A stretch of DNA of 51,788 bases, counting the filler, from Dirinaria sp. TL-2023a (Eukaryota): the NCBI GenBank assembly GCA_051941275.1. It is 3 parts of 3 records of this genome, joined end to end, with 100 filler letters (N's around TTAATTAATTAA, not from the genome) between each part and the next. Parts side by side here need not be neighbours in the genome. Positions count along the whole stretch, not along the records: positions 34,602 to 51,788 come from JAVEBF010000446.1; 2 more parts are not named here. The stretch is one strand, 5' to 3'. Positions 17,204 through 40,128 of the stretch are shown one piece after another; the stretch's first letter is position 1; the number at the start of each line of letters is the position of its first letter. Made by a program: the position numbers and the translations under genes. Under the pieces are notes generated by a model, which was not told where the DNA came from, ran no database searches, and worked only from the letters and a program-made list of their open reading frames with translations.

Positions 17204-17303
17204 NNNNNNNNNNNNNNNNNNNNNNNNNNNNNNNNNNNNNNNNNNNNTTAATTAATTAANNNNNNNNNNNNNNNNNNNNNNNNNNNNNNNNNNNNNNNNN
17301 NNN
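17204..17303. other. Artificial contig linker (44 N + TTAATTAATTAA + 44 N)
   Basis: Exactly 100 nt; the core at 17248-17259 places stops in all six frames; an identical linker occurs at 34502-34601. Confidence 0.97.
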
Positions 17304-33490: not shown

Positions 33491-34501
33491 GGAGACTTGG
33501 TCGGGGTACTGGAATCAATAATAATAATGAGCTTAACGCCTGATGCGGAGATTCCAATTCTCGTCGGCAGATAATAGTGAATTTCCCTCGGCTCGGCTAG
33601 GCTACTCGGTACTCATGGTGATGATTTGACATCCCATACCTTACGGTATTCACATGATGCAGCACCAAGCAAGGTGAAACCTAAGGCAGCTGAACGAGAA
33701 TGACCAGATCTGGGCATCCCAGTCTGGATTGCGCCTCATTGCCCAGATCTTGGTTGAGGATGTAGGGAGAAAAGTCTGGAAGAGCTCACGTTATTCTCCC
33801 ATTGGACGCTGCTGTCCTGCCCTGGTCTGCTATTGACTCTTAAGCTTGTTCGAACCTCACCCTATCATTTGCTACCCCACCTTCGCTTTTTGGACAATCT
33901 TCAATACAGCCTAGGTAATTTTACACACCGCTCAAGAGAATGGGAACTCAATTTGCAATCACGCCTTAGGTAAATTTTTGCTTTCCGTCTTCTCTTCTCG
34001 GTGGCAACGGAGACAAAAGGCAAATGTTCAGCTTCGACGTGCGAGCCAAGCTGACGCCATCGCTGAAAATACTGGCCCAACTTTCTCATGGTCGACCTAA
34101 GACCACGCTGCCAAGCTCCTTTGGGACTAGCGCCCAAGCCAAGGACCCAGGCCAAGATCAGCCCTACGCCATACCGTAAGGCACTTAAGCGTTGGCGTGC
34201 TGCGAGCTTGCGACACCAGTGACCAAGGTACCACTAAGGCAAGGTAAGGTAGCAGTAAACGTGGATGCGCAAGCCTTGCAGCTCGTCTCCCCCGTCTAGA
34301 ACAACGATGGAGCGAATTTGTCCGCATCTTAGCACTGCCACAGGGCAATAGCAAGACACTACTGTGCTATGCGCTCTCTACTGAGTATGCTGATTGATAG
34401 GATACGATTCGCACTGAGTTCAGATAATTGTCAACCGCACCGCTGCGAGCTATCACTGCATCAGCAAATCATCAGCATGCAGATCACATTAGGTCCAATG
34501 C

Positions 34502-34601
34502 NNNNNNNNNNNNNNNNNNNNNNNNNNNNNNNNNNNNNNNNNNNNTTAATTAATTAANNNNNNNNNNNNNNNNNNNNNNNNNNNNNNNNNNNNNNNNNNN
34601 N
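34502..34601. other. Artificial contig linker (44 N + TTAATTAATTAA + 44 N)
   Basis: Identical to the linker at 17204-17303; core at 34546-34557. Confidence 0.97.
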
Positions 34602-34985
34602 TTCAAGACTCGTTTTGACGTTTTGCTTATTCGGATTCAAGATGAGAATATGCAACGCATTCTGGCAGACGACAGCGTCTATGGGTACGTGGGCGCTGAC
34701 TTTATAAGAACACTGTTCGCAAATACACGTGTCGAGGTTCTAGACGTCTACATCAATGTCTTGAAAGTCTTGTGAGAGACTGTCATAGTCTTCTCACTTT
34801 TCAGCTTCATCTTGGTCTTCATTGCTAAAGATGTCGAGTTCAGAAAGGAGTTGGACACCAAATTTGGGCTCAGTGAAGCAGAAGATATGAATAGGCATCA
34901 AACAACGTCTGAGAAAGAGAGCAACGTCACAGCGAGAAATCCTAGCAATCAATCGAGCACAGAGATGTCGAACGAAAAGGTCTAG
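34602..34985 (+). pseudogene. C-terminal remnant of an MFS drug-efflux (DHA2-type) transporter, point-mutated
   Basis: FKTRFDVLLIRIQDENMQRILADDSVYGYVGADFIRTLFANTRVEVLDVYINVLKVL*ETVIVFSLFSFILVFIAKDVEFRKELDTKFGL matches the fungal DHA2 tail pattern (..W...I.F...F.LVF..K..LRKEL.T.FGL). In-frame TGA at 34773-34775 replaces the conserved Trp. Confidence 0.75.
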
Positions 34986-35263
34986 ACATCTGAAACGCTG
35001 TTTGCATGTATTCAATCATCATTCTACTGATAAGATTCAAATGTTTAAGCTTACACCTAGTTCAAATGCCAATAGACGTCGGTCATTCAAATCATTATCA
35101 GTCTTCGTGTGGTAAAGAGCATCAGTGTTGCGAATCTTTTTTTCAAACATTATTATCGAATAGCAAAATTACTGCTTTATCTCTTCGTGCATAGCAGTCT
35201 CTTTTGAATCATCTTCTTCGTGCTGTCATCATGCCTCGTCGTGCGTCAAGCCTCTCACACAGA

Positions 35264-36435
35264 CTAAGTCAGTATCGGCCTTTGACCCCAAACAGCATAG
35301 ATTCGGTGCATGGCGCCAACTTTGAGCAATTCGCCCTCCACTCGCGCTGCTACATTATCAAGCTCTTCCCATCGAGAACGAAGTAGATGCCGCTACGGAG
35401 TCGGGGACATCAGCCGATTCACTACGCAAGCATTCAAAAGAGCGCCAACATTCATGACAGAAAAATGAGTCGAAAACTCACATCTCGCGTACTGGACTAC
35501 GCCGGCGATAGCTATGGTTAAGCTTCTGGCACCCTTTTCCCCTCAATTCCTTCTTTGCATTGCTTTTCCCAAGCGGCACGTCCAGTACCCGCTCTTCAAC
35601 CCTTTCCATGCCTATTTCCAGTATCCATCCTTTCATCGACCGTGGATAATCACAGTCGACGCCCATCTGCCCGAACAATTCTCTCAGCAAGCTGAACGCG
35701 TCATTCGTAGCCGGACCAAACCGCGCCGGGTCCCGCGTTGTCGGCCTCGAGCAGCCGGATCCACCCCCCCCCGGGCTTCACCAGCACGGTGAGAGCACCC
35801 ACGGCCGAGCGGAGGGAATATGTCTCACAGTCTGGGAGGGTCGGGCGTTGATGCACGAGATCGAAGCGGTCCCTGAACGATTTCGGATACGGCGTCGTCA
35901 TGTCATGGTACATGAGGACCACGAACGGGGCCGGAGGGCTCGGGAAGTAAGACGGCATGATGTCGGTCCCGATAAAGAATTTTGAATTGTTGATGTTGGA
36001 GACGGGCATGTTGGATCGTAGATCGCGGAGTCGGAGATTTGAAGCTCTTTTTCTTGAGCATCATCAAGAGAGGTTTCATGGGAAGGAACAAAAAGAGAAA
36101 GAGAGGGCCAAAAGGGGCAAAGAGATGGACGGAGAAACGCACCGTCGACGGTCGCGTCGTCGAAGATCTGCAGGCCGCGCTGCTGCGAGAGATCGAACGG
36201 GGCGAGCACCAGGTCCCCACCCATGCAGCCCTTGAAGACTTCGTGCTGGTAGCGCAGGCGCTCGACTTCCGTCGGGTTTTGGGCCAGAAAGTAGGTTTCG
36301 CCGTTCGTGTCCTGCTGTTCCTCTGGTTTTGGGTCCGAGGAAGGACGGATCAATGTTTGAGGGAAGGGAATCGAGATTTGTCTCTTTTTGCGCTGTTGTA
36401 GCCATGATCGCTGCTTGTGCGGTGGTGGTAGCCAT
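35264..36435 (-). pseudogene. Class I SAM-dependent methyltransferase pseudogene (fungal secondary-metabolism type)
   Basis: Fragments in different frames: YFLAQNPTEVERLRYQHEVFK..LVLAPFDLS..IFDDATVDG (degenerate motif I), IGTDIMPSYFP..HDMTTPYP..FDLVHQR..LVKPGGGWIRLLEAD, ..IYAVWGQRP. Frameshifts near 36350, 35720 and 35535. Confidence 0.75.
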
Positions 36436-38179
36436 GATTCTCAGAAGAAGACATTTCTTCAGTCGATGATCATCCTCGATTTTCACGGGTAGGGGCAGTT
36501 TTATGCATTGGGGTATTATCTAATCTCTCTTTTTTTTTTTTTTTTAATCTTATTTAGTAGGTAGCGCATCGGTGCCCATATCATAATCAGCCCGAAACTG
36601 TAGCCCGCAAAAGGGATTTTCCACCGGAAGACTTTTTGCCCACTCGCTCGGGCGCCGCTGGTTTGCCCCCCGAACCGATTCGAGCGATGATAGAAGAAGA
36701 AATGGAAATCGAGTTGTCATCGCTCTGTTTTCTCTCCCACACTCCAAGAATCCATGCCAGAAACGCCCTTTTCGAATGAAAATTTCGCGGGGCGGCGGGA
36801 TCTAAATCCATTCACTACAGTAATAAGGTCCATGAAGGGGTGGCTGTCACGTTGCCGACGTGAAACTTTACACGCCACATTTCGTTTGGTTTTTCGATTC
36901 ATAGCGAAAACAGCAAGAACTTCCGCTCTACACCGAAGAACTTTTCATCTTTGTTTTCCATGATTCTGATAGACCCACACCATCGCGATTTTTGTGTAAA
37001 ACCTTGTCTGGGATATTGTAGGAAAAGAGAGAAAAAGATACCATTCGTTGGAAATTTTTCGATGGGGGTTTTATTTGTTTGACTGTGGGATTTTTCTCTT
37101 GGGATGAGGAGGGGTTTCTGTATAAGATGAGGAGGGGGAGGGATTGGGATTAGGAATAATACCTTTTCAATCGTCATTCTTATGACGCAGTGTTACTAGC
37201 AGAGCAATCCCGTAGCGTAAAACCAGAAGATCAGCTAGGAGGGTCTCAGATGGCTTGCCTTATGTTTCATGTGCATATCCCGTACTCCGAGCGGAGAATT
37301 ATTGGAGTTTGGGAGGGAAGCCCAAAAAAAAAAAAGCATCTAGGCGATTCATCAAAGGAAGCGAGAAAGCTGCTTTGCGTGGTTCCTGCTAAGCGCGGGT
37401 CCCCTATGTAAGCATGGCAAGAATGCGTGCTTTTTAGATGCAGCGATATGTCGCTCCCCTTTCATGGCCTGGCTTGACCACCTCAGGGGCAAGTGTCTAG
37501 ATGCAGTATAGACATCGGTGTTACATACTTCGGATATTCGGATCGCTTATATAATTATGCGAGACTCGGTGAGCATGCATTTTACAAGTATATCTGAGGT
37601 GGCAACTGGTATCGGATTTGATATGGCATTGTTGGAGGTGACCTTCATGTGACGTCTTCAGAATATCGGAGAGGATGAAATGCCATCTCACGATGCTCTA
37701 TGGCAATTTGGGCGGCAAATGGACGGGAGATATATGGTCTCCCGCACATCCCCAGGCCTCCTCATTGCATTCGATATTGCAAATTCGGAGGCTCCAAAGC
37801 AACAACCCACCCATCCCAGGTGCATTCCAAACCAGGTTGACTCCAGGTATCGGCCGCTAAGGCAGAGGGAGCGTTGGCGCTAGCGGCAGCATTTTGGTGC
37901 GTGTTGCACTGCTGATCATGTGCGCATTACACTACTTTTTCGGCCTTGGAGCCTTGATTGTATAGGCCATGTGAGCCGTGTTCTGTGATGCTGTTGCCCT
38001 TGGCGCCGGCAAGGTCCAAACCATTAGCTCAATACCAGATAGATATGCGTTCATGACCATCGAAAGCACTTGTTCCCTGGCATGTGCTGCTCAGGCTAAG
38101 GGGAAAGCAACATCAATGAATATAACTTTTCCGATTCACTTCCCATCAATTTCCGAGAGTTGCAGGACTCATAGACTAG

Positions 38180-40128
38180 CTAGTCTCCCACCTCAGAACC
38201 GCCCCCGAGCTCTGTCAGGTTTGCAATGTTCATCAGCGCAGTCATGTCCGGTCCACCGGGCGCTAGAATTGGCGGACATGCGTAGTCGTAGGTTACCGGC
38301 GCAATGAAGGACGCGGTCGTTTGATTATCGTATGCCAGTCGAACTAGGGAATTACCTGTAGTCATACGTAAGGTCGATCGAGAGCCTTCAACATGTATAG
38401 GAGTAGATGTCCTTACTCTGAGGATTGTACTGTGGCCACGAATACGGTGCTCGTGATAGGCCTGCAGTAGGGTTTTTCGCAAAAGATGCCCAGGCGCCCA
38501 TGATATAGCTCGATATCAATGTCTCTGGCGATGTATTGGGTAATCCAGCAAGCTCAGCCGTCCCAAAGACAGTGGTTATCTCGGATCCGCGATAAGCACC
38601 GCTACTGGGGTTGATAGTCAGACGGAGATTTGGGAATTCTCCAAAATATCGATAGCGCCCGACGGGAACTCTATTGGACGCTCAATACTGAGCTGCGGCA
38701 TCGACTGGGCACGTAAATGTCTGAAGATTATTGAACCAACGACTGAGTCTTTCCCATCGACTGATACATAATTTTGATGAGTCCCGCTTCATAGTCGTTG
38801 CTACCAAGCAGCATAGGCTTCTTGATGAATCGCCCTGATTGTCCTCGAGATGCACAGTCGGAAAAGACAATCTTGTTGTCTGGAGTTGGGCCAAACGGTG
38901 CTATTATCGCTGTTGTCGATAGGATGTCCGACATTGACTTACTACGCATACAGTGCAGCGTGAACAGCACTCCTTTGGAAGTATCTCCACACCTCAAAGC
39001 CTGAGTAAGAGTGTACCAAGCTCTGGTATTATCGGGAGGAGCAGGGTTTAAGAAGCTTGTTGATACTCCTAATTCCGCGATAAAGCCATTAACAATCGGG
39101 TTTGAAGATCAAGCGTAGCTATAGTAGTCGATCGACGCGCCACCAGCAGAATTACCAAATAGCGTAATTCGGTTAGGATCTCCATCAAACCCTGCAATGT
39201 TGGGTTTTGCTCATTCGATTGCTAAGCGTTGATCCAAGAGACCAATGTTCTGGTTTGTGCCGGGAAGGCCGGGGAGCCCGAAGACTGAAGTTCGATAACT
39301 AGTCGCTTTCAGTATGATATCACTTTCGTGCAATACATTCTCAATTCTTGAGGGCGTACAGCATCTCGAATGGCGTTAACTCACTTTGCGGAAACAACAA
39401 TGACGTCTTGAGTATCAGCGAGGAACTCTCCATCGTAAAGAAACGAGTTCGTCGTTCTCTTTATAAAGTCTGACCTCGTCAGTCACTCTTATCACCGTAC
39501 ACGAAGGATGATCGACAGACCCTCTTCGGAGAGTCAGAAAAGTACTGCTTTGGTCTTTTCATCACTGTTCGCTTTGACTCGGATGTTGAAGGTCAGACAG
39601 TCTTCCCCGACGATTGCTTCTAATTGCTGGGTAGCATCAACGACTTTTGCAGCGGTTGGTTCTAACACCGTTACTTTGCTGCTTATGGAGGACGTGGCCA
39701 CGTTGGCAGGACAGTCACTTTACGTTGGCCATGTTAGTATCGCCTTCGCTCATAGTACTCAGGGTGTTTGCTTGTGGGAGTCCTCACGCAGACTATTCTC
39801 CCAGCCCAGGTCAGTAAAATGCCCGCTTTCAATAGGCTGGACTTGCGAAATCCAATGCTTGGTACGTGTATCGACCAGCTGCCCGATAAGGCTGCGGGGC
39901 GGCAAAGCGGAGATTTCCTAGTGGTGGCTTGGCAAAAGGAATGCCTAAGAACTCAGTCACCGAACTCTTATGAGGGGCCTTGTGGCCTTCAATCAGTCCA
40001 CTTGTGGTCGGCACTTGCAAAGTATTGTTGATTGCGTGGGGCGGAAAAGATGGTAATGATGATGATGATGATGCTACTACGAGCAGTAACAGTAGGCTTA
40101 CAGTGTGGAAAAACGCCCCTCCTAACGT
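38180..40128 (-). pseudogene. Secreted type-B carboxylesterase (cholinesterase-like alpha/beta hydrolase) pseudogene
   Basis: Signal peptide starts at ACG (40128). Motifs EFLGIPFAKPPLGNLRFAAP, EDCLTFNI, GLLDQRLAIE*, NIAGFDGDPNRITLFGNSAGG and RYRYFGEFPNL..GAYRGSE (catalytic His position reads Arg). Stops at 39536, 39213, 39111 and 38684, plus frameshifts. Confidence 0.88.

Follow-up and report, generated by a model that had tools for sequence, protein, structure and literature searches.

RIP in Neurospora crassa, which runs through a RID pathway and a second, DIM-2 pathway, is described as a directional C:G to T:A change of repeats with few transversions, in which the 3' base sets the preference and the hierarchy flattens on saturation (10.1101/344036, PMC2621366), and the effect of the 5' base on CpA is weak (10.1101/344036). 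In Magnaporthe oryzae, Botrytis cinerea and Sclerotinia sclerotiorum, RIP-like mutation is biased towards CpT and CpA, a RID-specific motif has been proposed as the cause, and CpC is absent from the signatures in the available text of the report (PMC4352252). Species-specific dinucleotide signatures in transposons, biased to CpG, have been described for Tuber melanosporum, Microbotryum and Aspergillus nidulans MATE (PMC4352252, PMC2621366). Among the Lecanoromycetes, transposons of Cladonia rangiformis and Xanthoria carry RIP signatures that were recognised by their GC content or by extensive RIP-affected regions, with no dinucleotide context given in the available parts of either report (PMC12542154, PMC13486527). 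No CpC-dominant RIP was found in the main texts of the literature searched, where mentions of CpC are limited to a class in RIPCAL, a depletion incidental to other changes, and CpC>TpT doubles in CpA-type RIP.

A window of 51,788 nucleotides from the lichen-forming fungus Dirinaria sp. TL-2023a (GenBank assembly GCA_051941275.1) had been reported in a first-pass annotation to carry the marks of a RIP-like C>T mutator preferring CpC to CpA, and the repeats of this genome bear the claim out. Transposon copies show dense directional C>T/G>A change in the order CpC, CpT, CpA, CpG. In 14 repeat pairs, hand-picked from 26 and with some loci shared between pairs, 294 of 502 CpC sites were changed, against 212/1094 for CpT, 117/1106 for CpA and 32/994 for CpG, where a 3' neighbour variable between C and T was scored as C, raising the CpC figure in saturated pairs. 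An excess over CpA, CpG and CpT, the lack of which was to have counted against the idea, is thus present. The same pairs hold 655 transitions vs 38 transversions in 8784 columns, and most remaining differences in the saturated ones are CpT and CpA. CpC exceeds CpT threefold overall, unlike in M. oryzae, B. cinerea and S. sclerotiorum, with which this RID-bearing ascomycete shares a preference other than CpA; CpT ranks second here. The excess is about fifteenfold in one lightly mutated LTR pair (CpC 85/174, CpT 5/160, CpA 3/196, CpG 2/100, 1 transversion), where all 95 changes lie in one copy and the other LTR is unchanged; strands are mixed, and the changes are not grouped in single-strand runs. 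When the C2677 repeat was compared with C1331, its least-mutated relative, 41/41 differences were one-directional. The CpC rate is 0.52-0.63 whichever of the four bases precedes (ACC 0.61, GCC 0.56), vs 0.14 for TCA, 0.03 for TCG, 0.05 for CCA and 0.07 for CCG.

Genome-wide, the change is confined to repeated DNA, with CC+GG below 0.3 of expected in 16/30 RT loci vs 4/3880 windows of gene-rich contigs (400 kb; 19/3880 below 0.5). The loss of CC/GG in affected repeats reaches 99%, and stops within 32 RT matches comprise 34 TGA, 9 TAG and 7 TAA. GC content stays at 30-38% in the loci with most mutation, whereas it drops to 10-20% in the relics described in Cladonia (PMC12542154). Since TpA is not made in excess, TpA/ApT stays at 0.56-0.82 in the 16 most affected RT loci, and under default thresholds (TpA/ApT at least 0.89, (CpA+TpG)/(ApC+GpT) at most 1.03; PMC2621366) none of the 16 passes both indices and four pass one. 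Canonical CpA-type RIP was rejected on this result and on the CpA and CpC counts above. RIPCAL already offers a CpC index, and this cleanly separates the 16 loci (0.00-0.12) from six window genes (0.69-0.85). A search for hAT elements gave no match, and its control likewise matched nowhere. A metagenome scan with a LINE protein returned one usable locus, L076, which at 70% DNA identity is too distant for the CpC target to be tested in other lichens.

The CpC signature of the transposons recurs in two gene segments, a ~1.5-kb patch in an MFS gene and a ~550-bp patch in an esterase gene. The first had been placed beside a gap thought to hide a repeat. However, positions 34502..34601 are an artificial linker (44 N, a 12-bp all-frame stop and 44 N) and no scaffold gap; it joins the unrelated contigs C445 and C446, and an identical linker is found at 17204-17303 of the window. 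Contig numbering in this assembly runs by size (C443, 17210; C444, 17203; C447, 17169). Window position 34602 is base 1 of G000:C446, and the true left neighbour of this contig is G000:C326, which shares a 16-bp overlap with it and carries the remaining MFS gene; no repeat was seen at the C326/C446 junction.

The C-terminal end of this MFS (MFS_1/TRI12-like) transporter pseudogene lies on the plus strand at 34602..34985, and forms the 3' part of hypermutated patch 1. An exhaustive homologue search found 124 relatives, the full-length ones being MFS_1, while the 127-residue remnant gave no homologue when compared with longer proteins only. The rest of the pseudogene (G000:C326:1-~1350, minus strand) matches residues 44-467 of P0054. 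The near absence of CC from 34602-34985 noted earlier was confirmed (2 vs 14.6 expected, equalled in 0/20000 shuffles; GG 14 vs 22), as was the persistence of CA (31 vs 22.7) and TG (24 vs 24.2). Similar depletion is not general in the window, as CC+GG observed/expected is 0.44 here vs a mean of 0.94 and a minimum of 0.56 for 384-bp windows outside 34500-35400. The 3' flank (34986..35250) is still CC/GG-poor (CC 3 vs 11.8, GG 2 vs 7.0), and a 150-bp profile places the right edge close to 35250, followed by a short ramp that ends at about 35500. Patch 1 is a bounded stretch from C326:~910 to window ~35250, affecting both strands. From 35251 to 38100 CC/GG is normal (0.96 and 1.13), which makes the esterase patch an event of its own; the proposed increase towards the gap was not borne out, and CC/GG along the sequence shows a plateau with edges and the distinct esterase patch, not a slope.

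Gene-level context tests took protein consensus, not ancestral DNA, as the reference. On this basis, conserved CpC sites were changed at 28/48 positions in the 3' 920 bp of the MFS part on C326, compared with 0/53 in other contexts, vs 1/19 and 1/38 upstream of it and 7/294 and 42/451 in six paralogous MFS genes; strands are mixed in the MFS patch. The in-window remnant is too short to reveal an excess (missense changes 3/7 CpC vs 4/10 others). It contains a TGA of CpC type at 34773..34775 (plus strand), where 117/123 aligned MFS relatives have Trp. Against the relative described below, 33/286 bases of the remnant differ, compared with 26/789 in the RTC gene and 34/797 in the esterase 3' half.

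The carboxylesterase (PF00135) pseudogene has six exons on the minus strand (38180..40113) with intact splice signals, four internal TGA codons and an 11-bp deletion near 38730, and 434/528 aligned residues are identical to P0003. In RNA contigs of a small-share relative, used as an outgroup only and drawn from three runs (X1/X3/X4) of one sample in one study, two of the esterase introns are spliced out and the 11 bases are present. Patch 2 (39109..39661, minus strand) has 13/36 conserved CpC sites changed vs 5/90 others; its limits were set after the fact, for which a scan statistic gave p 0.0001-0.0014. Read on the coding strand, 12 of the 13 CpC changes are G>A (p 0.04). The whole gene shows 16/130 vs 15/293 (p 0.014) and the 3' half no CpC bias (3/69 vs 6/161). 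Patch 2 contains the TGA codons at 39536, 39213 and 39111, where Trp is found in P0003 and in 9/10, 12/12 and 10/12 outgroups, respectively, and the relative reads TGG at 39111. It also contains a Gly-Gly-Gly run at 39527-39469, and the FGGDP>FDGDP change noted earlier is real, with Gly in 12/12 outgroups. The fourth TGA (38682..38684, minus strand) derives from CGA, a CpG site with Arg in P0003 and 12/12 outgroups and CGA in the relative, and is ordinary decay outside the CpC process. Three further Trp codons were lost by other routes, and among the 40 listed of 153 differences from the relative, nearly all outside patch 2 and none in the MFS remnant, there is no CpC excess (9 CpC, 11 CpA, 10 CpG, 2 CpT, 8 transversions). 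Patch 2 is superimposed on ordinary decay of the esterase. The earlier observation that the four stops placed at conserved Trp positions (34773, 39536, 39213 and 39111) are all TGA and none TAG is correct, and Trp is the family residue at each; taken by itself, such a run of four carries little weight (p 0.06), and for both pseudogenes together the count is 7/7.

Homologues of RID and DIM-2 had also been suggested for examination, and the former was found. A sequence search placed a RID/Masc1 homologue on G000:C1379 (PF00145, E 6.8e-30, 866-codon frame), stopped by the contig end ahead of the recognition domain. EQT replaces ENV, and changes near the active site include Asp>Pro in the catalytic loop and Arg-Arg>Ser-Gly after the EQT motif. 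As numbering is by size, the contigs numbered beside this one are unrelated to it. DIM-2 was not found in the fragmented assembly, where PF00145 gave RID and DNMT5 only, the latter being the only other methyltransferase found, and BAH/PF01426 gave three other proteins. A putative methyltransferase gene in the window (35484-36434), queried in three pieces, had no Pfam match, and two window ORFs had no exact match in the protein collection.

It is thus probable that this fungus has a form of RIP whose target has moved from CpA to CpC. As in Neurospora, change is dense and directional with few transversions, the 3' base sets the preference with little effect of the 5' base, the hierarchy flattens on saturation and a RID homologue is present, though here CpC ranks first and CpA third, Trp codons become TGA rather than TAG and no DIM-2 turned up in the searches. 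Which cytosines are hit would depend on the 3' base and hardly at all on the 5' base, and the enzyme would be the RID homologue with an altered dinucleotide preference, acting, as in Neurospora, on paired repeats in the sexual cycle. With less confidence, each gene patch would be a segment once duplicated and mutated while paired, its partner since lost or unassembled, after more than one round in the MFS patch and about one in the esterase patch. Because the assembly holds no partner copy, the patches are read as probable footprints of lost duplicates, an origin that is favoured by a little on balance.

A CpC process acting on repeats might be real and the gene patches nonetheless be leakage from neighbouring transposons since deleted, as single-copy-DNA RIP has been interpreted in Cladosporium fulvum (PMC9453070). 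Both genes are single-copy in the assembly, and searches for a second MFS or esterase copy, which give lower bounds in so fragmented an assembly, found none. However, no repeat or transposon relic was seen adjoining either patch in the 346 kb of loci examined, and patch 1 forms a plateau bounded at either end rather than a one-ended slope. Mutation of single-copy linkers between repeats in Neurospora is mainly attributed to the DIM-2 pathway (10.1101/344036), and DIM-2 was not found here, leaving leakage rather unlikely. Another enzyme, through vegetative CpC methylation and deamination by an undetected DIM-2 or other methyltransferase, or a cytosine deaminase guided to silenced chromatin, would need no pairing and could reach silent single-copy genes, two of which are affected with no partner. 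DIM-2 may have been missed in the fragmented assembly, and both RID and DIM-2 are reported in C. rangiformis (PMC12542154). The DNMT5 that was found is, however, of a kind described as a CG maintenance enzyme (PMC7862722), yet CpG is the least mutated context, unlike in the CpG-biased Tuber, Microbotryum and MATE signatures; a reading as CpG methylation decay was dropped after testing. Within a round of RIP, changes fall in one-strand bursts. The mixed strands of the LTR pair and its single altered copy favour a different enzyme, but the mostly one-stranded patch 2 is easier to reconcile with a burst than with gradual deamination, and this explanation is considered distinctly improbable.

Damage might instead come from UV acting on dipyrimidines of a lichen that grows in the sun, or from deamination of the DNA of old specimens, and become fixed in the absence of selection; CC and CT, both dipyrimidines, do rank first and second. 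In TC and CC it is mostly the 3' cytosine that UV strikes, tandem CC>TT being a further product, and in UV or APOBEC3G-type mutagenesis the rate depends on whether a pyrimidine or a C lies on the 5' side. Both were rejected, as the 5' base has no effect, TCA, TCG, CCA and CCG showing no increase, the 3' C of CC is spared and the LTR pair has one CC>TT vs 84 CC>TC. The 3' half of the esterase, decaying neutrally next door, also lacks the bias, and the 5' context table with confinement to repeats and patches largely refutes UV or old-DNA damage, which is very improbable. Least credible, to the point of near dismissal, is that TGA is decoded as Trp in the nucleus and both genes are alive. The 7/7 stops are what it predicts, but in five intact window ORFs TGG occurs 26 times and TGA once, as terminator, the stops are accompanied by Pro>Ser, Gly>Asp/Glu and Ser>Phe changes in the same context, and the esterase has a CGA>TGA and a frameshift and reads TGG in the relative.

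A CpC target is especially damaging to proteins because every Pro, Gly and Trp codon contains CC or GG, and duplicated host genes are therefore killed fast; here the CpC process helped to remove a transporter and an esterase. If RIP can favour CpC, surveys based on TpA and CpA indices would score such genomes as RIP-free. A further and tentative possibility, on present evidence doubtful as a whole, is that RID was naturally retargeted from CpA to CpC, and works without DIM-2, via a few residues near the active site, with the sharply bounded gene scars recording vanished duplications or even marking silent single-copy genes that have no partner. If so, this RID would amount to a naturally occurring specificity mutant, able to show whether RID itself picks and edits the cytosine.

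TGA was confirmed at all four positions named in the first-pass annotation (34773 in the MFS remnant, window 34602-34985, plus strand; 39536, 39213 and 39111 in the esterase pseudogene, 38180-40113, minus strand), all of them sites where the family has Trp. The near absence of CC from the remnant was also borne out, with 2 found against 14.6 expected and CA and TG normal or raised, a depletion equalled by none of 20000 shuffles. CC+GG stood at 0.44 of expected, the minimum of other 384-base stretches in the window being 0.56; gene-rich contigs, sampled evenly in 40 stretches of 10 kb, had 19 of 3880 windows below 0.5 and 4 below 0.3. The remnant's in-window missense changes alone were not significant (CpC 3/7, others 4/10).

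The rest of the MFS gene was located on contig C326: a full-length relative, used as a query against the genome, matched there over residues 44-467, with the match running off the start of C326, and C326 overlaps contig C446 (base 1 is window 34602) by 16 bases. Scoring of non-synonymous transitions (C>T or G>A) was limited to columns with at least 8 relatives and conservation in at least 60% of them. In C326:920-1, CpC was changed at 28 of 48 sites and CpT, CpA and CpG together at 0 of 53 (p 2e-12), on both strands (16/21 and 12/27), and 11 of the CpC changes were Pro>Ser and none Pro>Leu. As the upstream segment C326:1400-921 gave CpC 1/19 and others 1/38, this patch extends over ~1.5 kb, beginning at C326:~910 and ending at window ~35250, with the contig break within it by chance. 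In six paralogous MFS genes, the same scoring gave CpC 7/294 and 42/451 elsewhere. The remnant differs from the contigs of an outgroup relative, whose DNA was found in lichen metagenome runs, at 33 of 286 bases, the corresponding figures being 26/789 for the RTC gene and 34/797 for the 3' half of the esterase. Directly upstream of this TRI12-like MFS gene is a Pyr_redox_2 (pyridine nucleotide-disulphide oxidoreductase) gene (L108, C326:1817-3006, minus strand) without CC depletion, a pairing that may resemble GliT/GliA-type self-protection genes.

The signature had been described as strongest beside a gap that probably hides a repeat. However, the 'gap' (34502-34601) is one of the identical 100-base linkers joining the three window contigs, and as contigs are numbered by size (C443, 17210; C444, 17203; C447, 17169) its two sides are unrelated. 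There is no repeat at the C326/C446 join; comparisons of the two contigs with themselves, with each other and with 346 kb of further loci also yielded none. CC/GG is normal between the two patches (0.96 and 1.13 of expected), so the signature does not fall away from the linker and the esterase patch is not the tail of such a gradient. CC/GG is likewise normal in the gene between the patches (35484-36434, minus strand), which is a putative relative of fungal SAM-dependent methyltransferases; its product, searched in three pieces, gave no Pfam match. Its reading frame shifts near 35720-35775, next to a run of C; it is possibly a third pseudogene, or else the assembly is in error there.

The nearest named relatives of the esterase come from Alectoria and Physcia, the organism being a lichen-forming Lecanoromycete. 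When the esterase was scored against P0003 and polarised by 12 outgroups, its derived non-synonymous transitions were CpC 16/130, CpT 4/93, CpA 6/110 and CpG 5/90 (p 0.014), alongside reverse transitions (8/369), 12 transversions and 6 multi-base changes. The CpC changes are clustered (scan p 0.0001-0.0014), with 13 of 36 sites changed in the second patch (39109-39661), 12 of these G>A on the coding strand; beyond residue 250 the counts were CpC 3/69 versus others 6/161. The gene has also lost 11 bases and gained a stop by CGA>TGA, and no close second copy was found in the assembly. It is a pseudogene in ordinary decay with one short CpC burst. A 5-base micro-exon seems to lie at 39792-39788 (minus strand; within 39788-39847), preceded by an intron that uses a GC donor, and with it the frame continues and fits the motif in P0005. 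The outgroup copy, spliced in RNA contigs (runs X1, X3 and X4), has TGG at 39111. It lacks 8 bases near 38702 and is altered at conserved residues, and thus looks decayed too; loss in the two lineages was apparently parallel or shared. No CpC excess was seen among 40 listed of the 153 differences between the copies, nearly all of them outside the second patch, part of whose changes may be older than the split.

The proposed C>T mutator preferring CpC over CpA was upheld in repeats. In 14 pairs, hand-picked from 26 alignments (at least 200 columns, at least 82% identity) to limit reuse, with some loci recurring and a C/T-variable 3' neighbour counted as C, changes numbered CpC 294/502, CpT 212/1094, CpA 117/1106 and CpG 32/994, with 38 transversions. 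The cleanest pair comes from a single element (L049, contig C1265), whose two LTRs of 1324 bases gave CpC 85/174, CpT 5/160, CpA 3/196, CpG 2/100 and 1 transversion; all 95 C>T/G>A changes are in one LTR, the other LTR and the interior being unmutated, which points either to asymmetric RIP or to a mosaic of copies in the assembly. Saturated pairs have exhausted their CpC, so what still differs is mostly CpT and CpA. The CpC signature extends to DNA transposons (DDE_1), and CC+GG was below 0.3 of expected in 16 of 30 reverse-transcriptase (RT) loci, 1 remaining of ~170 in the extreme case. Stops inside 32 RT matches were TGA 34, TAG 9 and TAA 7. The process is therefore repeat-directed and directional, in the order CpC > CpT > CpA > CpG, and the two bounded patches are its work in host genes. 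UV-like and APOBEC3G-like patterns were ruled out because the 5' base has no effect (CpC rate 0.52-0.63) and mutation passes over the second C of CC (CCA 0.05, CCG 0.07; CC>TT 1 versus CC>TC 84 in the LTR pair).

Two RT matches are off-pattern, C2403:766-1167 (TAG 5, TGA 1) and L040 on C2955 (TGA 4, CC/GG normal, CpG low), and possibly derive from another organism in the assembly. CC/GG-poor patches also occur in gene-rich contigs at L133:900-3200 (C205), with internal repeats, and L135:4300-5200 (C265), which looks like a LINE endonuclease relic. L139:3801-4700 (C385; TpA/ApT up to 3.5, 47-52% GC, CC/GG normal) satisfies classical RIP indices without GC loss and is probably a tandem repeat, and a LINE locus of another genome (L076:2800-3600) has an AT-rich tail of classical RIP type (GC 0.17, TpA/ApT 1.11, substrate index 0.67).

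A RID-like gene is present on C1379, which ends before the recognition domain; P0174, labelled Dirinaria, is identical to this genome's RID over the searched part. The second PF00145 candidate (L073, C712:4327-7539) is presumably DNMT5-like, judging by its motifs, although repeats are mutated least at CpG. DIM-2 was not found in the 3105-contig assembly, where PF00145 gives only these two and BAH matches are other proteins. Among 115 alignable of 120 RID matches, the catalytic-loop Asp (89%) is Pro in P0174-P0176 (versus ~107 others), and Ser-Gly replaces the Arg-Arg (90% and 99%) that follows the EQT motif. Further lichen RIDs, P0266 among them, share the Pro, and these changes are a lead only to a possible basis of the CpC target. 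Excerpts of 10.1101/344036 describe Neurospora RID as mutating within paired repeats and DIM-2 mainly single-copy linker. By analogy, RID would act within paired repeats here, during the sexual cycle, and the gene patches would be marks of lost duplicates. The patches could instead be leakage, but DIM-2 is unseen and the first patch is edged on both sides; with RID present, lost duplicates would explain them somewhat better.

The process works like RIP but is not canonical CpA RIP, as CpC leads and default indices fail: of the CC/GG-poor RT loci, none passed both default thresholds (from sections of PMC2621366) and 4 passed one. RIP signatures in sections of PMC2621366 and PMC4352252 are CpA, CpT and CpG, and lichen papers, in the portions available, report RIP without dinucleotide context (PMC12542154, PMC13486527, PMC13535494). 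CpC-dominant RIP was not found in the portions of the RIP literature covered, which include parts of PMC5737583, PMC5602860, PMC5555474, PMC7882544, PMC10246852, PMC8959702, PMC9453070, PMC7862722 and 10.1101/344036. This locus contributes a case of the CpC signature in host genes that are single-copy, backed by measured patch edges, paralogues as controls and an allele from an outgroup.
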